A DNA stretch of 64,000 nucleotides from a virus. Its lineage: Duplodnaviria; Heunggongvirae; Uroviricota; Caudoviricetes. Below, piece by piece: positions 24,880 through 29,693 of this stretch (position 1 is its first letter; each line of letters begins with the position of its first letter). The position numbers were made by a program, and so were the translations under genes. The notes beneath the pieces are model-generated. The model had not been told where the DNA came from, did no database searches, and saw only the letters and a program-made list of their open reading frames with translations. Location: positions 1-64,000 of IMG/VR virus record IMGVR_UViG_3300009551_000002; one strand, written 5' to 3'.

Positions 24880-24953
24880 TGGTGCGCCGGGATGGACTTG
24901 AACCATCGACCATCCGATTATTCTCGGCTGCTCTTTCTCTGAGCTACCGGCGC
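24880..24953 (-). tRNA. tRNA-like gene with a 6-nt anticodon loop (possible pseudo-tRNA)
   Basis: Good acceptor (GCGCCGG/CCGGCGC), D- and T-arms (GATGG-TTCAAGT-CCATC) and encoded CCA; anticodon stem CCGA/TCGG closes only GAATAA. Confidence 0.35.
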
Positions 24954-25012
24954 GTGGTGGGGGAGTCAGCATCTAAGCTAACACGGATGCCTCCGTGCCT
25001 CCCCCATAACTA

Positions 25013-25444
25013 CTACATTGTGGTGCTCCCGGCAGGGCTCGAACCTGCGACTGATTGAGTTAGAGTCAATCGCTCTGCCAACTGAGCTACAGGAGCGTTC
25101 GGTTTCCACAGCTTATATTGCGCCAGCGCTCTGCGTCGCGCGCCTACGATGGGCTCTGTGGTGATTGCTGTGAAGCCTAGATTCATCTCTTCGTCGGGCT
25201 CCGTCCACGACCAGTGCGCGATCCCACAATCGCTCAGCAGAGAGCATGTAGCGCGCAGGGCAGCCTCGTCGGGTACGCCGCACATGACGATGTTGGGGAC
25301 GTCGTCGTCGCCGTAGCGCGCTGCCATAGACCACGTGGCGTGGTTGGTCTGCACTAACTGATGCTCAAGGGGGATGTCCTGACGGACGAAGATATAAACG
25401 TACTGGCTGGAGGTCGGTGCCGGGCGGGCCGGGGTGGAGGTCAT
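25013..25444 (-). CDS. peptidyl-tRNA hydrolase, PTH2 family
   Basis: IFVRQDI...QTNHA...VPDEAAL...C-terminal YKLW parallels PTH2 VRNDL...QCSHA...APDEETL...LKLY; the ORF runs on without a stop through the Sup tRNA gene on the same strand. Confidence 0.5.
   Translation of the reverse strand: MTSTPARPAPTSSQYVYIFVRQDIPLEHQLVQTNHATWSMAARYGDDDVPNIVMCGVPDEAALRATCSLLSDCGIAHWSWTEPDEEMNLGFTAITTEPIVGARRRALAQYKLWKPNAPVAQLAERLTLTQSVAGSSPAGSTTM
25021..25096 (-). tRNA. amber suppressor tRNA, anticodon CUA (tRNA-Sup)
   Basis: Perfect cloverleaf; anticodon stem ATTGA/TCAAT, loop CTCTAAC gives anticodon CUA; CCA encoded; body resembles the E. coli-type tRNA-Lys scaffold. Confidence 0.7.
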
Positions 25445-25522
25445 CTAGGTCATGAAAGAAGTGTATCGAACGCACGTTTTCCTGTCAAGAAAAAAGTGAT
25501 AGACTTGAGCCCGAGGTAAATT

Positions 25523-25675
25523 ATGTCACTCGTGCTCATAATCCTGCTGATATTGGTACTATTCGGCGGCGGCGGGTACTACTACGGCGGTCCTGTGTAC
25601 GGTGGCGGGAGCCTCGGACTCGTCCTCCTCATTCTGTTAGTCCTATTGGTGCTCGGCGTGATCCCACGCGGCTAA
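25523..25675 (+). CDS. tiny hydrophobic Gly/Tyr-rich peptide (50 aa)
   Basis: MSLVLIILLILVLFGGGGYYYGGPVYGGGSLGLVLLILLVLLVLGVIPRG; not in the track. Confidence 0.3.
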   Translation: MSLVLIILLILVLFGGGGYYYGGPVYGGGSLGLVLLILLVLLVLGVIPRG

Positions 25676-25736
25676 AGCGCTTAGGATTCAACGACTGGGC
25701 ACGTGAGTGCTTAGATTACTGGGAAGGAGTTCTCTA

Positions 25737-25898
25737 ATGCTACCTACGATTGCGTTCATACTTTGGGTATTTGCGCTGGTGTTTTTCATTTTAGCCACGG
25801 TCGGCATCCCGAGCCCGCCACGGTTTAACTTTATGGCTGCCGGGCTCGCGTGCATTGCGCTGGCTGCTGTGATCACGCGGGCGTTGGGCCTTTCCTAA
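25737..25898 (+). CDS. small membrane protein (two TM helices)
   Basis: RBS GGAAGGAG before ATG 25737. Confidence 0.4.
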   Translation: MLPTIAFILWVFALVFFILATVGIPSPPRFNFMAAGLACIALAAVITRALGLS

Positions 25899-25952
25899 AA
25901 CCACGAGGGAGAATGGTGGGCCACCGGGACCTCTCTTAGGTCCTGGTTGGTC

Positions 25953-26032
25953 TGGTGCGCCCGGTAGGAGTCGAACCTACAAATTGACACTCGTTTTGAG
26001 CGAGCCGCTTTTGCCGATTTAGCCACGGGCGC
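25953..26032 (-). tRNA. tRNA-Leu(CAA)
   Basis: Anticodon loop CTCAAAA; 3-bp D-stem with a short (8-nt) variable region; CCA encoded. Confidence 0.55.
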
Positions 26033-26477
26033 GTATATCTCGAATTCTCCTCCAGTGACGATCACCTTTCCGGCAATCTTTACATTGCCTAGCGAGTCCG
26101 TTCCAACGCGTCGAGTTTTTGTGAAACTTTTTAACAGACCTGAATCGTTTGCAATGACTGCACCACGATTTCCCAGGCGGTAGTGCGGTCCTAGCCCCAG
26201 TTAAATAATGAGGGCGATTACAACGTGCGTGGGAAAAAGCGACGTTCTCCTGATCCCAAAAAAGATCCGCTGATTTATCTTCCCAAGGGCGCTTATGTTC
26301 GACGGTGAACTGCTGGACACTCTCGATCCTAGAGCCACATCTGAAGCAGAGATCCATTTTGGCTGCTACGGCCAGTCTAAATAGAATCGCTTTCCGTAAT
26401 TGATGTAGCGCGGTTCCGTAGGACATTCCAAGTTGCTTTTTGATCTTTGCCGCTCTGTTTCTCCAATCATAGGCCAT
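26019..26477 (-). CDS. HNH homing endonuclease
   Basis: CFRCGSRIESVQQFTVEHKRPWEDKSADLFWDQENVAFSHARCNRPH; inserted in the tRNA array; 3' end overlaps tRNA-Leu(CAA) by 14 nt; start taken at the internal ATG 26477. Confidence 0.55.
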   Translation of the reverse strand: MAYDWRNRAAKIKKQLGMSYGTALHQLRKAILFRLAVAAKMDLCFRCGSRIESVQQFTVEHKRPWEDKSADLFWDQENVAFSHARCNRPHYLTGARTALPPGKSWCSHCKRFRSVKKFHKNSTRWNGLARQCKDCRKGDRHWRRIRDIRARG

Positions 26478-26525
26478 GCTTTTTATAGTAACACTGGTGG
26501 GCACCTTTAGGATGCCCACCAATTC

Positions 26526-26615
26526 TGGTGGGTGCCCTCGGATTTGAACCGAGACTGCCGCAAGGGCAAGAAGTTTTACAGACTCCCGCGCCGTAACCAT
26601 ATCCGACTGTCACCC
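26526..26615 (-). tRNA. tRNA-Tyr(GUA)
   Basis: Class II with long variable arm; anticodon loop CTGTAAA. Confidence 0.6.
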
Positions 26616-26621
26616 GTAATT

Positions 26622-26716
26622 TGGCAGAGGGCCTGGGAGTCGAACCCAGTTGCGCTCGAAGGATCTAACGCGTGTCGCATTAGCAGTGCGATGGCTTACC
26701 GTCCGCCTCGCCCTCT
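26622..26716 (-). tRNA. tRNA-Ser(GCU)
   Basis: Class II; anticodon stem TCGCA/TGCGA, loop CTGCTAA. Confidence 0.65.
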
Positions 26717-26717
26717 G

Positions 26718-26790
26718 TGGCACGAGTGGAAGGAATCGAACCCTCAATCGCAGTTTTGGAGGCTGCTACCGTCACCGTCCGGTCACTCGT
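26718..26790 (-). tRNA. tRNA-Trp(CCA)
   Basis: Anticodon loop CTCCAAA; T-loop TTCGATT. Confidence 0.55.
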
Positions 26791-26799
26791 GTATAAATA

Positions 26800-26887
26800 T
26801 GGCGGAAGGGAGGAGAGTCGAACTCCTATGCGCCGAAGCTGCGGCAGTTTTCGAGACTGCTGGGTTACCATTTACCCATCCCTTCCG
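26800..26887 (-). tRNA. tRNA-Ser(CGA)
   Basis: Class II; anticodon stem GCAGT/ACTGC, loop CTCGAAA. Confidence 0.65.
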
Positions 26888-26901
26888 TGATGTCAAAGAT
26901 C

Positions 26902-26984
26902 TGGTAGCCCCGGAGAGAATTGAACTCTCACGCCCGAAGGCACTGGTTTCTAAGACCAGCGTGTATGCATTCCACCACGGGGCC
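26902..26984 (-). tRNA. tRNA-Leu(UAG)
   Basis: Class II; anticodon stem CTGGT/ACCAG, loop CTTAGAA. Confidence 0.65.
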
Positions 26985-26985
26985 G

Positions 26986-28767: not shown

Positions 28768-28809
28768 ATATTTACTACAATTACGACATATTCAGTTGTC
28801 AAAGAACTA

Positions 28810-28885
28810 TGGTCGAGCCGCGCAGGATCGAACTGCGATCTCAGCCTTCGGAGGACTGGGTCCTGTCCGTTTGAACGACGGCCCG
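28810..28885 (-). tRNA. tRNA-Arg(CCG)
   Basis: Anticodon stem CAGTC/GGCTG, loop CTCCGAA. Confidence 0.6.
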
Positions 28886-28889
28886 AAAT

Positions 28890-28965
28890 TGGAGTCGGCG
28901 TCGGAACTCGAATCCGAATTTGCAGTTTAGGAAACTGCCGCTCTGTCCAATTGAACTACGCCGAC
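28890..28965 (-). tRNA. tRNA-Arg(CCU)
   Basis: Anticodon stem GCAGT/ACTGC, loop TTCCTAA. Confidence 0.65.
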
Positions 28966-28966
28966 A

Positions 28967-29041
28967 TGGGGTGGCCGGAGGAGCTTGAATCCTCTTTCAC
29001 TGATCCACAGTCAGCGGCTTTACCGTATAAGCTACGGCCAC
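28967..29041 (-). tRNA. tRNA-His(GUG)
   Basis: Anticodon loop CTGTGGA; discriminator C73 typical of His; no encoded G-1. Confidence 0.6.
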
Positions 29042-29044
29042 AGT

Positions 29045-29120
29045 TGGTGGATCTCCGGGGAATCGAACCCCGATTTCTTCGGTGCAAACGAAGCTGCTTC
29101 CCGTTGGCAATGAGAGACCC
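29045..29120 (-). tRNA. tRNA-Ala(UGC)
   Basis: Anticodon stem CTTCG/CGAAG, loop TTTGCAC; G3-U70 alanine identity pair present. Confidence 0.6.
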
Positions 29121-29125
29121 GAAAT

Positions 29126-29187
29126 TGCACCCCACGCTCGGATTCTCACCGATGCACTGTCGACAACGCCTAGGCGCAGACGTGGGG
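29126..29187 (-). other. 62-nt tRNA-like remnant (7-bp acceptor-like stem, lacks one arm) containing two perfect palindromes
   Basis: CCCCACG...CGTGGGG acceptor-like stem ending T-GCA; internal CGCCTAGGCG and TGTCGACA palindromes; T-loop-like TGAGAAT is non-canonical. Confidence 0.25.
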
Positions 29188-29191
29188 AACT

Positions 29192-29266
29192 TGGAGCGAT
29201 CTATCGGACTCGAACCGATGTTGATGCGTTGGCAACGCAACGTCCTGGCCACTAGACGAAGACCGC
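29192..29266 (-). tRNA. tRNA-Gly(GCC)
   Basis: Anticodon loop TTGCCAA; discriminator U73. Confidence 0.55.
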
Positions 29267-29272
29267 GAAAAT

Positions 29273-29346
29273 TGGAGCGAGTAGTGAGAATCGAACTCAC
29301 GTCTGGAGTTTGGAAGACTCCGGCCCTGCCACTGGACGACACCCGC
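29273..29346 (-). tRNA. tRNA-Gly(UCC)
   Basis: Anticodon stem GGAGT/ACTCC, loop CTTCCAA; discriminator U73. Confidence 0.65.
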
Positions 29347-29351
29347 GAAAA

Positions 29352-29426
29352 TGGATCTGGCTCGGAGAATCGAACTCCGGTAGTCGGTTTACGATACCGA
29401 TGCTCTGCCGACTGAGCTAAGCCAGA
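29352..29426 (-). tRNA. tRNA-Thr(CGU)
   Basis: Anticodon stem TCGGT/ACCGA, loop ATCGTAA. Confidence 0.6.
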
Positions 29427-29427
29427 A

Positions 29428-29501
29428 TGGATCTGAGACTGGGACTTGAACCCAGGTCTGCGCCTTACCAAAGCGCCGTTCTGCCGCTGAACTATCCCAG
29501 A
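29428..29501 (-). tRNA. tRNA-Thr(GGU)
   Basis: Anticodon stem GCGCT/GGCGC, loop TTGGTAA. Confidence 0.65.
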
Positions 29502-29622
29502 GTGATATGGTTCCCGTGTTGCGCCGACCGGCTGTGGGAGATTTATGCCTGTCGGCTGGATTGGTCCGGTCGCGTCGCCTGTTCGGCAAACATGCGAATT
29601 CCAGTGACCTTATGATTAGTTT

Positions 29623-29693
29623 TGGGGCTCACGAACGGAGTCGAACCGTTGCCAGCATCCATACAAAGGGAGCCGCCCATCCGAGGCGTGAGC
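29623..29693 (-). other. truncated tRNA-like element (His-like acceptor with G-1/C73, canonical T-arm, too-short core)
   Basis: GCTCACG/CGTGAGC acceptor, C discriminator, CCA, T-arm AACGG-TTCGACT-CCGTT, but only 34 nt between acceptor and T-arm. Confidence 0.25.

Follow-up and report, generated by a model that had tools for sequence, protein, structure and literature searches.

A 32-gene phage tRNA array of probably two histories, with a terminal cassette in which an in-frame amber codon precedes a PTH2-like gene

Phage arrays of transfer RNA (tRNA) genes that cover 20 isotypes, include a tRNA with a CUA anticodon and hold intercalated endonucleases, beside a separate Pth gene, are already known (PMC6409571, PMC5852040, PMC6102473). 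Another array lies on the minus strand of the virus record IMGVR_UViG_3300009551_000002 (Caudoviricetes), of which positions 1 to 64,000, here called the window, were analysed. ARAGORN finds 32 tRNA genes between 24880 and 29501, and the locus raises the question of whether these form one unit, with the tRNA(CUA) as an incidental member, or more than one. The answer to which the analysis leads is that the array probably consists of two units of different history, a block of 30 tRNAs (25953-29501) and a terminal cassette in the last 0.66 kb (24829-25488), which comprises a promoter, an amber-gated gene (one with an in-frame UAG just behind its start), the tRNA(CUA) and tRNA-like RNAs. The word probably is meant here as one joint grade for the whole explanation, gating included. 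The array is of a known kind; the cassette looks new.

The locus was compared with loci of relatives, to which L-numbers were given and which comprise metagenomic contigs and GenBank phages (L038 is Serratia phage BF, L039 is Arash and L041 is GAP32). Single-protein scans of IMG/VR and GTDB genomes returned no close relatives, and an alignment scan of IMG/VR later succeeded. On either side of the 30-tRNA block, the sister contigs L006-L011 run collinear with the window; window 36000-30650 corresponds to L007 158-5487, and window 25516-24346 to L007 6391-7574. The sister phages are without about 5.1 kb, which in the window holds a 189-amino-acid open reading frame (ORF), the 30 tRNAs, a small basic ORF and an HNH gene, and they retain the terminal 0.66-kb cassette. 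The 30-tRNA block is accessory and dispensable, and beyond this clear presence or absence among close relatives the array itself adds little. The cassette, on the minus strand throughout, is made up of the following parts, given in the direction of its transcription.

25460-25488, minus: cassette promoter, TTGACA-17-TACACT, found by promoter scan (10/12)
25445-25453, minus: ATG-ACC-TAG, in frame and directly before the PTH2-like ORF, read from the sequence
25013-25444, minus: gene for a PTH2-fold protein of 143 amino acids, conserved domain 25097-25444, with no stop of its own, ending at TAG-TAG
25021-25096, minus: tRNA(CUA), predicted amber suppressor with a tRNA-Lys-like body and A73 (ARAGORN; Rfam 68.4 bits)
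24955-25005, minus: mini tRNA-like RNA 1, closing stem, 7-bp hairpin and 3-bp hairpin, then ACCA (fold z-score -3.6)
24880-24953, minus: tRNA-shaped RNA with normal acceptor, D and T arms and CCA (ARAGORN; Rfam 49.2 bits; fold)
24829-24879, minus: mini tRNA-like RNA 2, same architecture, ACCA end (covariance model R1 32.3 bits, E-value 1.2e-3; fold -28.7 kcal/mol)

The -10 hexamer of the promoter ends 6 nucleotides before the ATG at 25453, and a leaderless messenger RNA is therefore predicted. The same promoter geometry was found in L004, L006, L013-L016, L017-L019, L021, L024, L025 and L033. A start codon, one to four sense codons and TAG, in frame with the conserved N-terminus or first strand, are present in 22 of 27 metagenomic loci at 30-85% protein identity, and an early in-frame TAG was also observed in six of the ten GenBank phages examined (ME3, Serratia BF, Arash, GAP32, RsoM2USA and the 595-kb LR756511). 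The stop in gated members is always TAG, never TAA or TGA. As a control, an upstream TAG stop with a nearby start occurs in about 7% of the other coding-like frames of the window. A Shine-Dalgarno sequence precedes the pre-TAG ATG in L032 and L035, and the pre-TAG GTG in L034.

It is because of the early UAG that the gene has been missed, truncated or split in the GenBank records of cultured phages. It is unannotated or truncated in GAP32, BF and RsoM2USA (unannotated in BF at L038 1486-1812, truncated in GAP32 at L041 1486-1815), split in Arash and short in ME3. The LR756511 record carries no annotation at all, and in Arash (L039, OQ632216) the tRNA at 2810-2884 is annotated as tRNA-Phe but has a CUA anticodon by ARAGORN. 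Cultured carriers of the gated gene exist in Acinetobacter phage ME3 (KU935715), Salmonella phage Arash, Cronobacter phage GAP32, Serratia BF and Ralstonia phage RsoM2USA, which makes the proposal directly testable.

The bar minigenes of lambda consist of AUG, one sense codon and a stop; they release peptidyl-tRNA, and their effects depend on Pth. By analogy, ATG-NNN-TAG could be a two-codon regulatory upstream mini-ORF, with the protein made by termination and reinitiation and the tRNA(CUA) unneeded. Very short ORFs release peptidyl-tRNA, the substrate of Pth enzymes, and a start-capable codon (ATG, GTG, ATT or ATC) does follow the TAG in the window, L004, L006, L013-L020, L022-L024 and L033. 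In L029, L035, Serratia BF, GAP32 and Arash, however, the codon after the TAG is AAC, ACT or AAT, and none of the codons up to the conserved first strand is a start; in those lineages the protein cannot arise by reinitiation. Moreover, the gated members use only TAG although it is the rarest stop in the window, and the neighbouring tRNA is specifically CUA. Unlike a bar minigene, the mini-ORF of the cassette is in frame and continuous with the hydrolase gene, its stop is always UAG, and the matching suppressor lies in cis. We regard the mini-ORF explanation as quite improbable and continue with suppression of the UAG as the preferred reading.

The protein behind the UAG was identified by its fold. 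Searches of Pfam and PDB with the 143-amino-acid ORF 25013-25444 returned nothing, and those of PHROG nothing informative. With homologues included, an AlphaFold model reached a predicted local distance difference test score of 83.8, and Foldseek matched this model to proteins of the phages RaK2, Myrna and Atu_ph07 that are named peptidyl-tRNA hydrolase. As modelled, the cassette protein has the PTH2 alpha/beta fold and would presumably act as a hydrolase. In the family alignment, E82-P83-D84, G90 and T96 are invariant and a Q..HA motif is near-invariant; at the sequence level, these candidate catalytic residues resemble the DAG.T and AQ..HA motifs of Pth2. The family numbers about 2,000 clusters at 50% identity. 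The PTH2 of jumbo phages (Iyer et al. 2021, PMC7824862) has the same fold, and the homologues in RaK2, GAP32, CBB, ME3 and XacN1 are 25-38% identical. Ribosome rescue after tRNA damage was proposed for the jumbo-phage enzyme in that study (PMC7824862), and the jumbo-phage PTH2 literature found makes no mention of an in-frame amber, a tRNA(CUA) linkage or tRNA-like RNAs.

Two codons separate the end of the conserved domain from the tRNA(CUA), through which the ORF reads on; the same arrangement was found in 15 lineages. It was further observed that the ORF ends just after the tRNA CCA at ATG-TAG-TAG (25013-25020, minus), as it also does in L006 (3380-3388) and L013. This tandem amber pair may act as a second line of termination while the suppressor is active.

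The tRNA(CUA) itself has the highest Rfam tRNA score in the window and is most similar to tRNA-Lys genes. It adjoins or overlaps the PTH2-like gene in 16 lineages and lies no more than 2.5 kb away in eight more, including ME3 and Arash. At loci with only one or two tRNAs, the tRNA beside the gene is CUA in all but one, L026. There the TAG is absent, a GTG start stands behind an ordinary Shine-Dalgarno sequence, and tRNA-Arg(UCU) takes the CUA position; L027 has neither TAG nor tRNA. Discriminator bases vary among lineages, and the residue inserted at the UAG is therefore probably unimportant. Judged from sequence, the tRNA(CUA) belongs to a separate, conserved, promoter-driven cassette and is not an incidental member of the array.

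A phage-encoded tRNA(CUA) could also serve an alternative code in which TAG is sense throughout, as in TAG-recoded gut phages, and the relative L032 has a second in-frame TAG inside its PTH2-like gene. Nevertheless, treating TAG as sense lengthens ORFs no more than treating TGA or TAA so (ORF coverage 0.80, 0.82 and 0.81, respectively), and TAG, the rarest stop, still ends 18 of the 113 predicted genes in the window. No early or internal in-frame TAG was found in other genes of the 64-kb window and, apart from the adjacency described below, no coding-frame pair; the window is about half of the genome, with late genes outside it. The phage uses the standard genetic code, as observed in 64 kb of at least 119 kb, and genome-wide reassignment of the stop codon was rejected on the scans of ORF coverage, stop usage and in-frame TAG. 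The alternative code is the least probable of the explanations considered and very improbable indeed. The resemblance to TAG-recoded phages (Borges et al., bioRxiv 10.1101/2021.08.26.457843) lies elsewhere: a phage tRNA(CUA) governs in-frame-TAG genes there, as is proposed for the cassette, and control of timing is proposed in both. In those phages many genes, mostly late ones, are recoded, whereas the window has the standard code and one such gene in 64 kb, with the TAG at codon 3 and the gene fused to the tRNA.

Two adjacencies were noticed in the same scans. A 113-amino-acid ORF at 4130-4471 (plus) ends in TAG and is followed three codons on, in the same frame, by a 282-amino-acid HNH-domain ORF (4481-5329); it is the sole other TAG-separated coding-like pair not explained away and is probably a chance adjacency. 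The pair at 33218-33772 corresponds to overlapping separate genes in a sister phage.

What the remaining RNAs of the cassette are was approached through their structures. In the tRNA-shaped RNA at 24880-24953, the anticodon region forms either a 4-bp stem with a GAAUAA loop or, according to ARAGORN, an 8-nucleotide loop, AGAAUAAU. In relatives, GNRA tetraloops occupy the anticodon position (GCAA in L006, GAAA in L013 and GCAA in L033). The 7-nucleotide anticodon loop with U33 and a purine at 37 that an elongator requires is absent, and the RNA is predicted to be unable to decode. An observation on its origin comes from L026, where the tRNA-Arg(UCU) at 8374-8448, behind an ungated PTH2-like gene, is identical to the anticodon-less RNA in its D and T arms; on this account the latter may derive from a decoding tRNA.

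The two mini RNAs share one architecture. Mini RNA 1 scores 59.3 bits with covariance model R1, and mini RNA 2, a member of the R1 training set, closes the cassette where the plus-strand genes converge on it. In an alignment of 13 copies from 11 lineages, picked by the closing stem (helix 1), 86% of cells are paired, as against 61% in shuffles and 41-53% in slid controls, and compensatory changes were found at 16 of 16 pairs. The mini-RNA covariance model found copies outside its training set, all of them inside cassettes and none in the spacers of the array itself. For the mini RNAs no Rfam match was obtained over 24829-25005 at E-values up to 1 with permissive filters. They could be taken, together with the tRNA-shaped RNA, for decayed tRNA pseudogenes or plain processing or terminator hairpins without a function of their own. 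Such an origin would suit the lack of a usable anticodon, the position of mini RNA 2 at the end of a transcription unit, where a terminator is expected, and a copy number that ranges from none to three among lineages. It does not suit the maintenance of helices 2 and 3 by compensatory changes across 30-85% protein identity or the retention of the closing stem and NCCA. The GNRA caps in three lineages do not look like random decay either, and no T-tract follows either mini RNA. Decay or a plain hairpin is, on balance, unlikely.

RNAs of tRNA-like form with no decoding role are known from the stable RNAs C and D of the T4 tRNA cluster and from bacterial YrlA, a Y RNA partner of Ro60. Like these, the small RNAs of the cassette lie within or beside a tRNA cluster and have tRNA-like acceptor ends, and the relative L012 has a Ro60/TROVE gene; unlike T4 RNAs C and D and the YrlA/Y RNAs, they have no sequence or Rfam match to go with the likeness. 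A Ro/TROVE protein with a tRNA-like partner was noted in PMC7824862. Both the two-hairpin NCCA form of about 51 nucleotides and the GNRA-capped tRNA shape appear to be undescribed in the literature searchable, and the cassette thus offers two candidate new small-RNA classes with tRNA-like ends. In L012 (9115-12540; 34% identity), an ungated PTH2-like gene stands 680 nucleotides after a tRNA(CUA) and is followed by about 700 nucleotides of repeated, structured-looking sequence and then by the Ro60/TROVE gene, an arrangement that suggests a Y-RNA-like module.

What is shown comprises the genes, the modelled fold, the conserved in-frame UAG with its linkage to tRNA(CUA), and the covarying RNA structures; read-through, enzyme activity and purpose are inferred. 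How these parts might work together can be put as follows. The sigma-70-type promoter is placed such that transcription would start at AUG-ACC-UAG. At first, ribosomes would terminate at codon 3 and yield only a dipeptide, and the tRNA(CUA) and small RNAs would be processed from the transcript. As charged tRNA(CUA) accumulates, it would read the UAG, and only then would the hydrolase be made; hydrolase output would track suppressor activity. The enzyme would recycle peptidyl- or blocked aminoacyl-tRNAs left to accumulate as ribosomes are stalled by read-through or by host defences targeting tRNA. This purpose is the weakest step of the proposal; it agrees with the ribosome-rescue role proposed for PTH2 in jumbo phages (PMC7824862). 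CCA tails are cut by Cas12a3, which also takes mimics of the acceptor stem as substrates (PMC12851939); by analogy, and as speculation, the mini RNAs might serve as decoys that divert enzymes directed against tRNA tails. The most comprehensive form of the proposal is a hitherto unrecognised, self-contained circuit, widespread in large phages, in which a suppressor tRNA cut from the same stop-less transcript would license a PTH2-type hydrolase via an amber at codon 3-6, with the mini RNAs and the anticodon-less tRNA as cofactors, or as decoys for host enzymes acting on tRNA ends; in this form it is offered tentatively and is more doubtful than assured. As for the Lys-like body of the suppressor, tRNA-Lys becomes limiting in Pth-deficient E. 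coli, to which it may relate.

A number of points weigh against this reading. In the many lineages with ATG, GTG, ATT or ATC after the TAG, reinitiation could occur without suppression, and five family members are ungated. The loci are mutually related, and what was counted in them cannot be taken as independent events. For six gated genes, no tRNA(CUA) lies in the DNA examined, which for four of them, the GenBank phages, was ±1.5 kb only. Neither the Pfam PTH2 model nor any PDB sequence is matched by the cassette protein (at E-values up to 10, nine family members hit no Pfam family, and the PDB search gave no hit), and it resembles 2gax, a protein of unknown function, as closely as Pth2. Since helix 1 of the mini RNAs was the selection criterion, only helices 2 and 3 are unbiased evidence. 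Lastly, the 30-tRNA block has two candidate purposes that suit the sequence alike, codon supply or compensation for tRNA loss.

If the proposal is true, the gene would be the first conserved target for amber suppressor tRNAs in standard-code phages. Amber suppressor tRNAs are found in many such phages, and what they act on has been a puzzle; the authors of the XacN1 study sought targets and found none (PMC5852040), and the phage's own PTH2-like gene is now a conserved candidate. In the literature, which was incompletely covered, neither a PTH2 gene gated by an amber codon nor the fusion of such a gene to tRNA(CUA) was found described, and the small RNAs were not found there either.

What, then, of the larger unit? 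In a preliminary description, made from the letters and an ORF list, the locus had been read as a minus-strand array of 32 tRNA genes, and this is borne out by ARAGORN (6.9 genes per kb over 4,622 bp) and by Rfam RF00005. The gathering score of the latter is reached by 26 of the 32 with default filters and by 29 with permissive ones; covariance models, whose rejection of most calls had been named there as the refuting outcome, thus keep 29 of 32. tRNA-Ala, with a degenerate D arm, scores 28.2 bits against a gathering threshold of 29, tRNA-Phe has tRNA-Sec as its best Rfam model (32.6 bits), and tRNA-Tyr gives no Rfam match even with permissive filters. The isotypes cover all 20 amino acids, as described earlier, plus one tRNA(CUA). 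The identities listed earlier match exactly, although the list adds up to 31, the 32nd being the odd tRNA-shaped gene at 24880-24953. The G3:U70 pair of tRNA-Ala and U73 of both tRNA-Gly were likewise found as described. The CCA end, earlier ascribed to nearly all genes, is in fact encoded in 32 of 32. Spacers of 1-10 nucleotides hold for 22 of the 31 junctions; the other junctions measure 15, 42, 66, 67 and 71 nucleotides or are ORF-containing gaps of 441, 493 and 856 nucleotides. The array has the gene number, density, independent model support and viral context of the viral tRNA gene clusters of PMC6409571, for which at least 15 tRNA genes at two or more per kb are asked. The 32-gene cluster is genuine and lies in phage DNA; maturation and charging of its tRNAs are predicted. 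From its head downwards, the accessory part and what follows it before the cassette read as follows.

27503-29501, minus: block A, 23 tRNA genes (ARAGORN; Rfam at or above gathering except Ala and Phe; all with CCA)
Block A, minus: Thr-GGU 29428-29501; Thr-CGU 29352-29426; Gly-UCC 29273-29346; Gly-GCC 29192-29266
Block A, minus: Ala-UGC 29045-29120; His-GUG 28967-29041; Arg-CCU 28890-28965; Arg-CCG 28810-28885
Block A, minus: Pro-UGG 28691-28767; Asn-GUU 28604-28680; Val-UAC 28529-28602; Ile-GAU 28451-28524
Block A, minus: Arg-UCU 28373-28448; Gln-UUG 28292-28366; Met/Ile2-CAU 28216-28290; Lys-CUU 28133-28208
Block A, minus: Lys-UUU 28052-28126; Glu-UUC 27968-28041; Arg-ACG 27891-27966; Asp-GUC 27811-27885
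Block A, minus: Glu-CUC 27729-27805; Phe-GAA 27587-27662; Gln-CUG 27503-27578
27229-27429, minus: small basic ORF of 66 amino acids between blocks A and B (ORF list; called as a gene on the source contig)
27198-27225, minus: intrinsic-terminator-like hairpin of 10 bp, seven of them G-C, then a T-run (terminator scan and sequence)
27164-27192, minus: promoter-like TTGCAA-17-TATACT upstream of block B (promoter scan, 9/12, a consensus match only)
26526-27061, minus: block B, six tRNA genes (ARAGORN; Rfam at or above gathering except Tyr; all with CCA)
Block B, minus: Cys-GCA 26986-27061; Leu-UAG 26902-26984; Ser-CGA 26800-26886
Block B, minus: Trp-CCA 26718-26790; Ser-GCU 26622-26716; Tyr-GUA 26526-26615
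26019-26489, minus: HNH endonuclease gene, 156 amino acids from the ATG at 26489, between tRNA-Tyr and tRNA-Leu(CAA)
25953-26032, minus: tRNA-Leu(CAA) (ARAGORN; Rfam 59 bits; CCA end)
25523-25898, plus: two small hydrophobic ORFs, 25523-25675 and 25707-25898 (ORF list; genes on the source and sister contigs)

The array had been described as reaching 29693; the last supported tRNA ends at 29501, and 29502-29693 holds no tRNA with support (nothing in Rfam, a fold z-score of -1.9, and a 101-nucleotide call by relaxed ARAGORN only). The small basic protein gene with its terminator, placed earlier at the head of the array, is in fact mid-array. No Pfam or PHROG match was found for this ORF, and its candidacy as a ribosomal-protein-like gene was rejected for want of such support. 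The terminator is predicted to close the transcription unit of block A. Of the two hydrophobic ORFs, which stand between the cassette and the remainder of the array, 25523-25675 has a weak match to DUF3309 (Pfam E-value 5.8e-4, below the family cut-off).

The intercalated HNH endonuclease of the preliminary description was recovered by both Pfam (PF01844, E-value 1.4e-5, above cut-off) and PHROG (phrog_23251 HNH endonuclease, E-value 2.7e-17). L013 shares the 3' order Trp, Ser-GCU, Tyr, ..., Leu-CAA, with Leu-UAG further upstream and without Cys and Ser-CGA. Between Tyr and Leu(CAA) it has a tRNA-Leu(UAA) and no ORF, where the window has the HNH gene. The site is polymorphic between the window and L013, in keeping with a mobile endonuclease, for which SegB of the T4 tRNA cluster is a parallel (PMC2330249, PMC13096335). 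The HNH motif and the presence/absence polymorphism of a homing endonuclease are both found; cleavage and homing are putative.

Read with standard wobble, the 30 canonical anticodons serve 47 of the 61 sense codons, which make up 83% of the codons in the window ORFs. The 14 sense codons without a phage tRNA include the commonest Val (GTC) and Leu (CTC) codons, and the phage therefore still needs host tRNAs. The near-complete decoding set of the preliminary description is thus complete for amino acids (20 of 20), not for codons, and the heavy translational autonomy claimed there was overstated; autonomy is only partial. A reading in line with that description takes the whole array for one unit of codon-usage compensation in a large virulent phage, with the suppressor incidental. 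The arrays of XacN1 and Atu_ph07 have been so interpreted (PMC5852040, PMC6102473), and both the 20 amino acids covered and the readable share of the codons agree with it. It is set back by the 14 uncovered codons, the commonest Val and Leu codons among them, by sister phages that have the same neighbour genes and do without the block, and by a suppressor that comes with a promoter and partners of its own and is conserved also in relatives without the array. As an account of the whole array we find it doubtful.

In the other account, the block mainly sustains translation against depletion or cleavage of the host tRNAs, whether through defence nucleases or during host shut-off, and codon bias is not the issue. 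An accessory block with a homing endonuclease resembles anti-defence loci; SegB of T4, which lies within the tRNA cluster, promotes inheritance of the cluster and amplifies those tRNA genes that counter defence (PMC2330249, PMC13096335). Escape from anticodon nucleases and from retron effectors has been proposed or demonstrated for phage tRNAs (PMC10264068, PMC11555353), and a CCA encoded on all 32 genes is one host dependence less. This account is compatible with codon supply, and both can hold, which limits what can be claimed for it; we see it as a live possibility, only slightly disfavoured. The 30-tRNA block would top up or replace host tRNAs during infection. It would be transcribed as at least two polycistronic minus-strand units, one ending at the terminator after the basic ORF and the next starting from the promoter-like site just downstream, with the tRNAs excised by host RNase P and 3' nucleases. 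Since CCA is encoded, no CCA-adding enzyme would be needed. The HNH homing endonuclease gene would ride in the block and probably aid its spread.

The array can be set beside known clusters. Dozens of same-strand tRNAs at 2-10 per kb are likewise found in the T4/T5 regions, mycobacteriophage cluster C, XacN1 and Atu_ph07 (PMC6409571). Some known phage clusters cover 20 isotypes, a CUA tRNA is often present ('Pyl' in ARAGORN), and endonucleases such as T4 SegB are intercalated (PMC2330249). The clusters surveyed in PMC6409571 have 15-37 genes, with the full 20 isotypes in only eight, so that an array of 32 is near the top. Encoded CCA is also common in related arrays (34 of 35 genes in L024, 23 of 25 in L029 and 38 of 40 in L031). 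Unlike the surveyed clusters, the block of the window is present or absent among close relatives, and the CUA tRNA is in a separate promoter-driven cassette.

Some further candidates within the array were tried and dropped. Extra tRNAs in the spacers 29121-29191 and 27663-27728 and upstream at 29502-29700 were called by relaxed ARAGORN only; Rfam and our own covariance model returned nothing there, and fold z-scores were weak. The two spacers, the long ones of block A (minus), do have closed-stem folds with z-scores of -2.2 and -2.4, with no Rfam or mini-RNA-model match. The CAU tRNA was considered as an initiator but is not initiator-like; read by eye, its anticodon stem lacks a run of three G-C pairs and its acceptor begins with U1-G72. 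It was kept as Met/Ile2. tRNA-Phe(GAA) at 27587-27662 (minus) has an A1-A72 mismatch, or an 8-bp acceptor stem if the U at 27663 is counted, and a possible 6-bp D stem. A 33rd tRNA lies outside the array on the plus strand (19428-19505; ARAGORN; Rfam 56.8 bits), with an 8-nucleotide anticodon loop, CCAUUACA, and an incomplete CCA (ACC-T). Both this tRNA and the 163-amino-acid ORF that follows it (19519-20010, plus) are missing from the sister phage L006.

The element that carries the array is phage DNA. Its proteins include a split family-A DNA polymerase, helicases and a Sak4-like protein (PHROG), tblastn matches of the window proteins are to phiCbK-like and Vi01-like phages, and a 676-amino-acid DUF8224 protein is 51% identical to its counterpart in phiCbK-like phages. 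A nucleotide search of GenBank phages gave no close genome, with matches at the tRNA level only; the sequence is also present on metagenome contigs, the largest of 119 kb. Plus-strand genes run to about 24800, where they meet the convergent minus-strand genes, whose 3' end is formed by the array.

Several other features of the window were recorded. The family-A DNA polymerase lies in two ORFs (7306-8838 and 12206-13621, plus) that are 3.4 kb apart and have the ORFs 8859-9344, 9307-10041 and 10710-11267 between them; the split may be a mobile insertion. A glycosyltransferase-sulfotransferase fusion (20259-22040, plus) and an adenosine 5'-phosphosulfate (APS) kinase (23029-23583, plus) suggest a phage-carried sulfation pathway. 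The kinase is 65-71% identical to kinases of metagenome-assembled genomes of Acidobacteriota (Bryobacterales/Solibacteraceae), which is a weak hint of an Acidobacteriota host. Near the position of window ORF 22059-22871 and the APS kinase, the sister phages (L006 4997-7179 and L007 8501-10683) encode a protein with a hairpin domain of the Acb2/Tad1 type, which is that of an anti-defence sponge, and a 600-amino-acid intein-containing protein.

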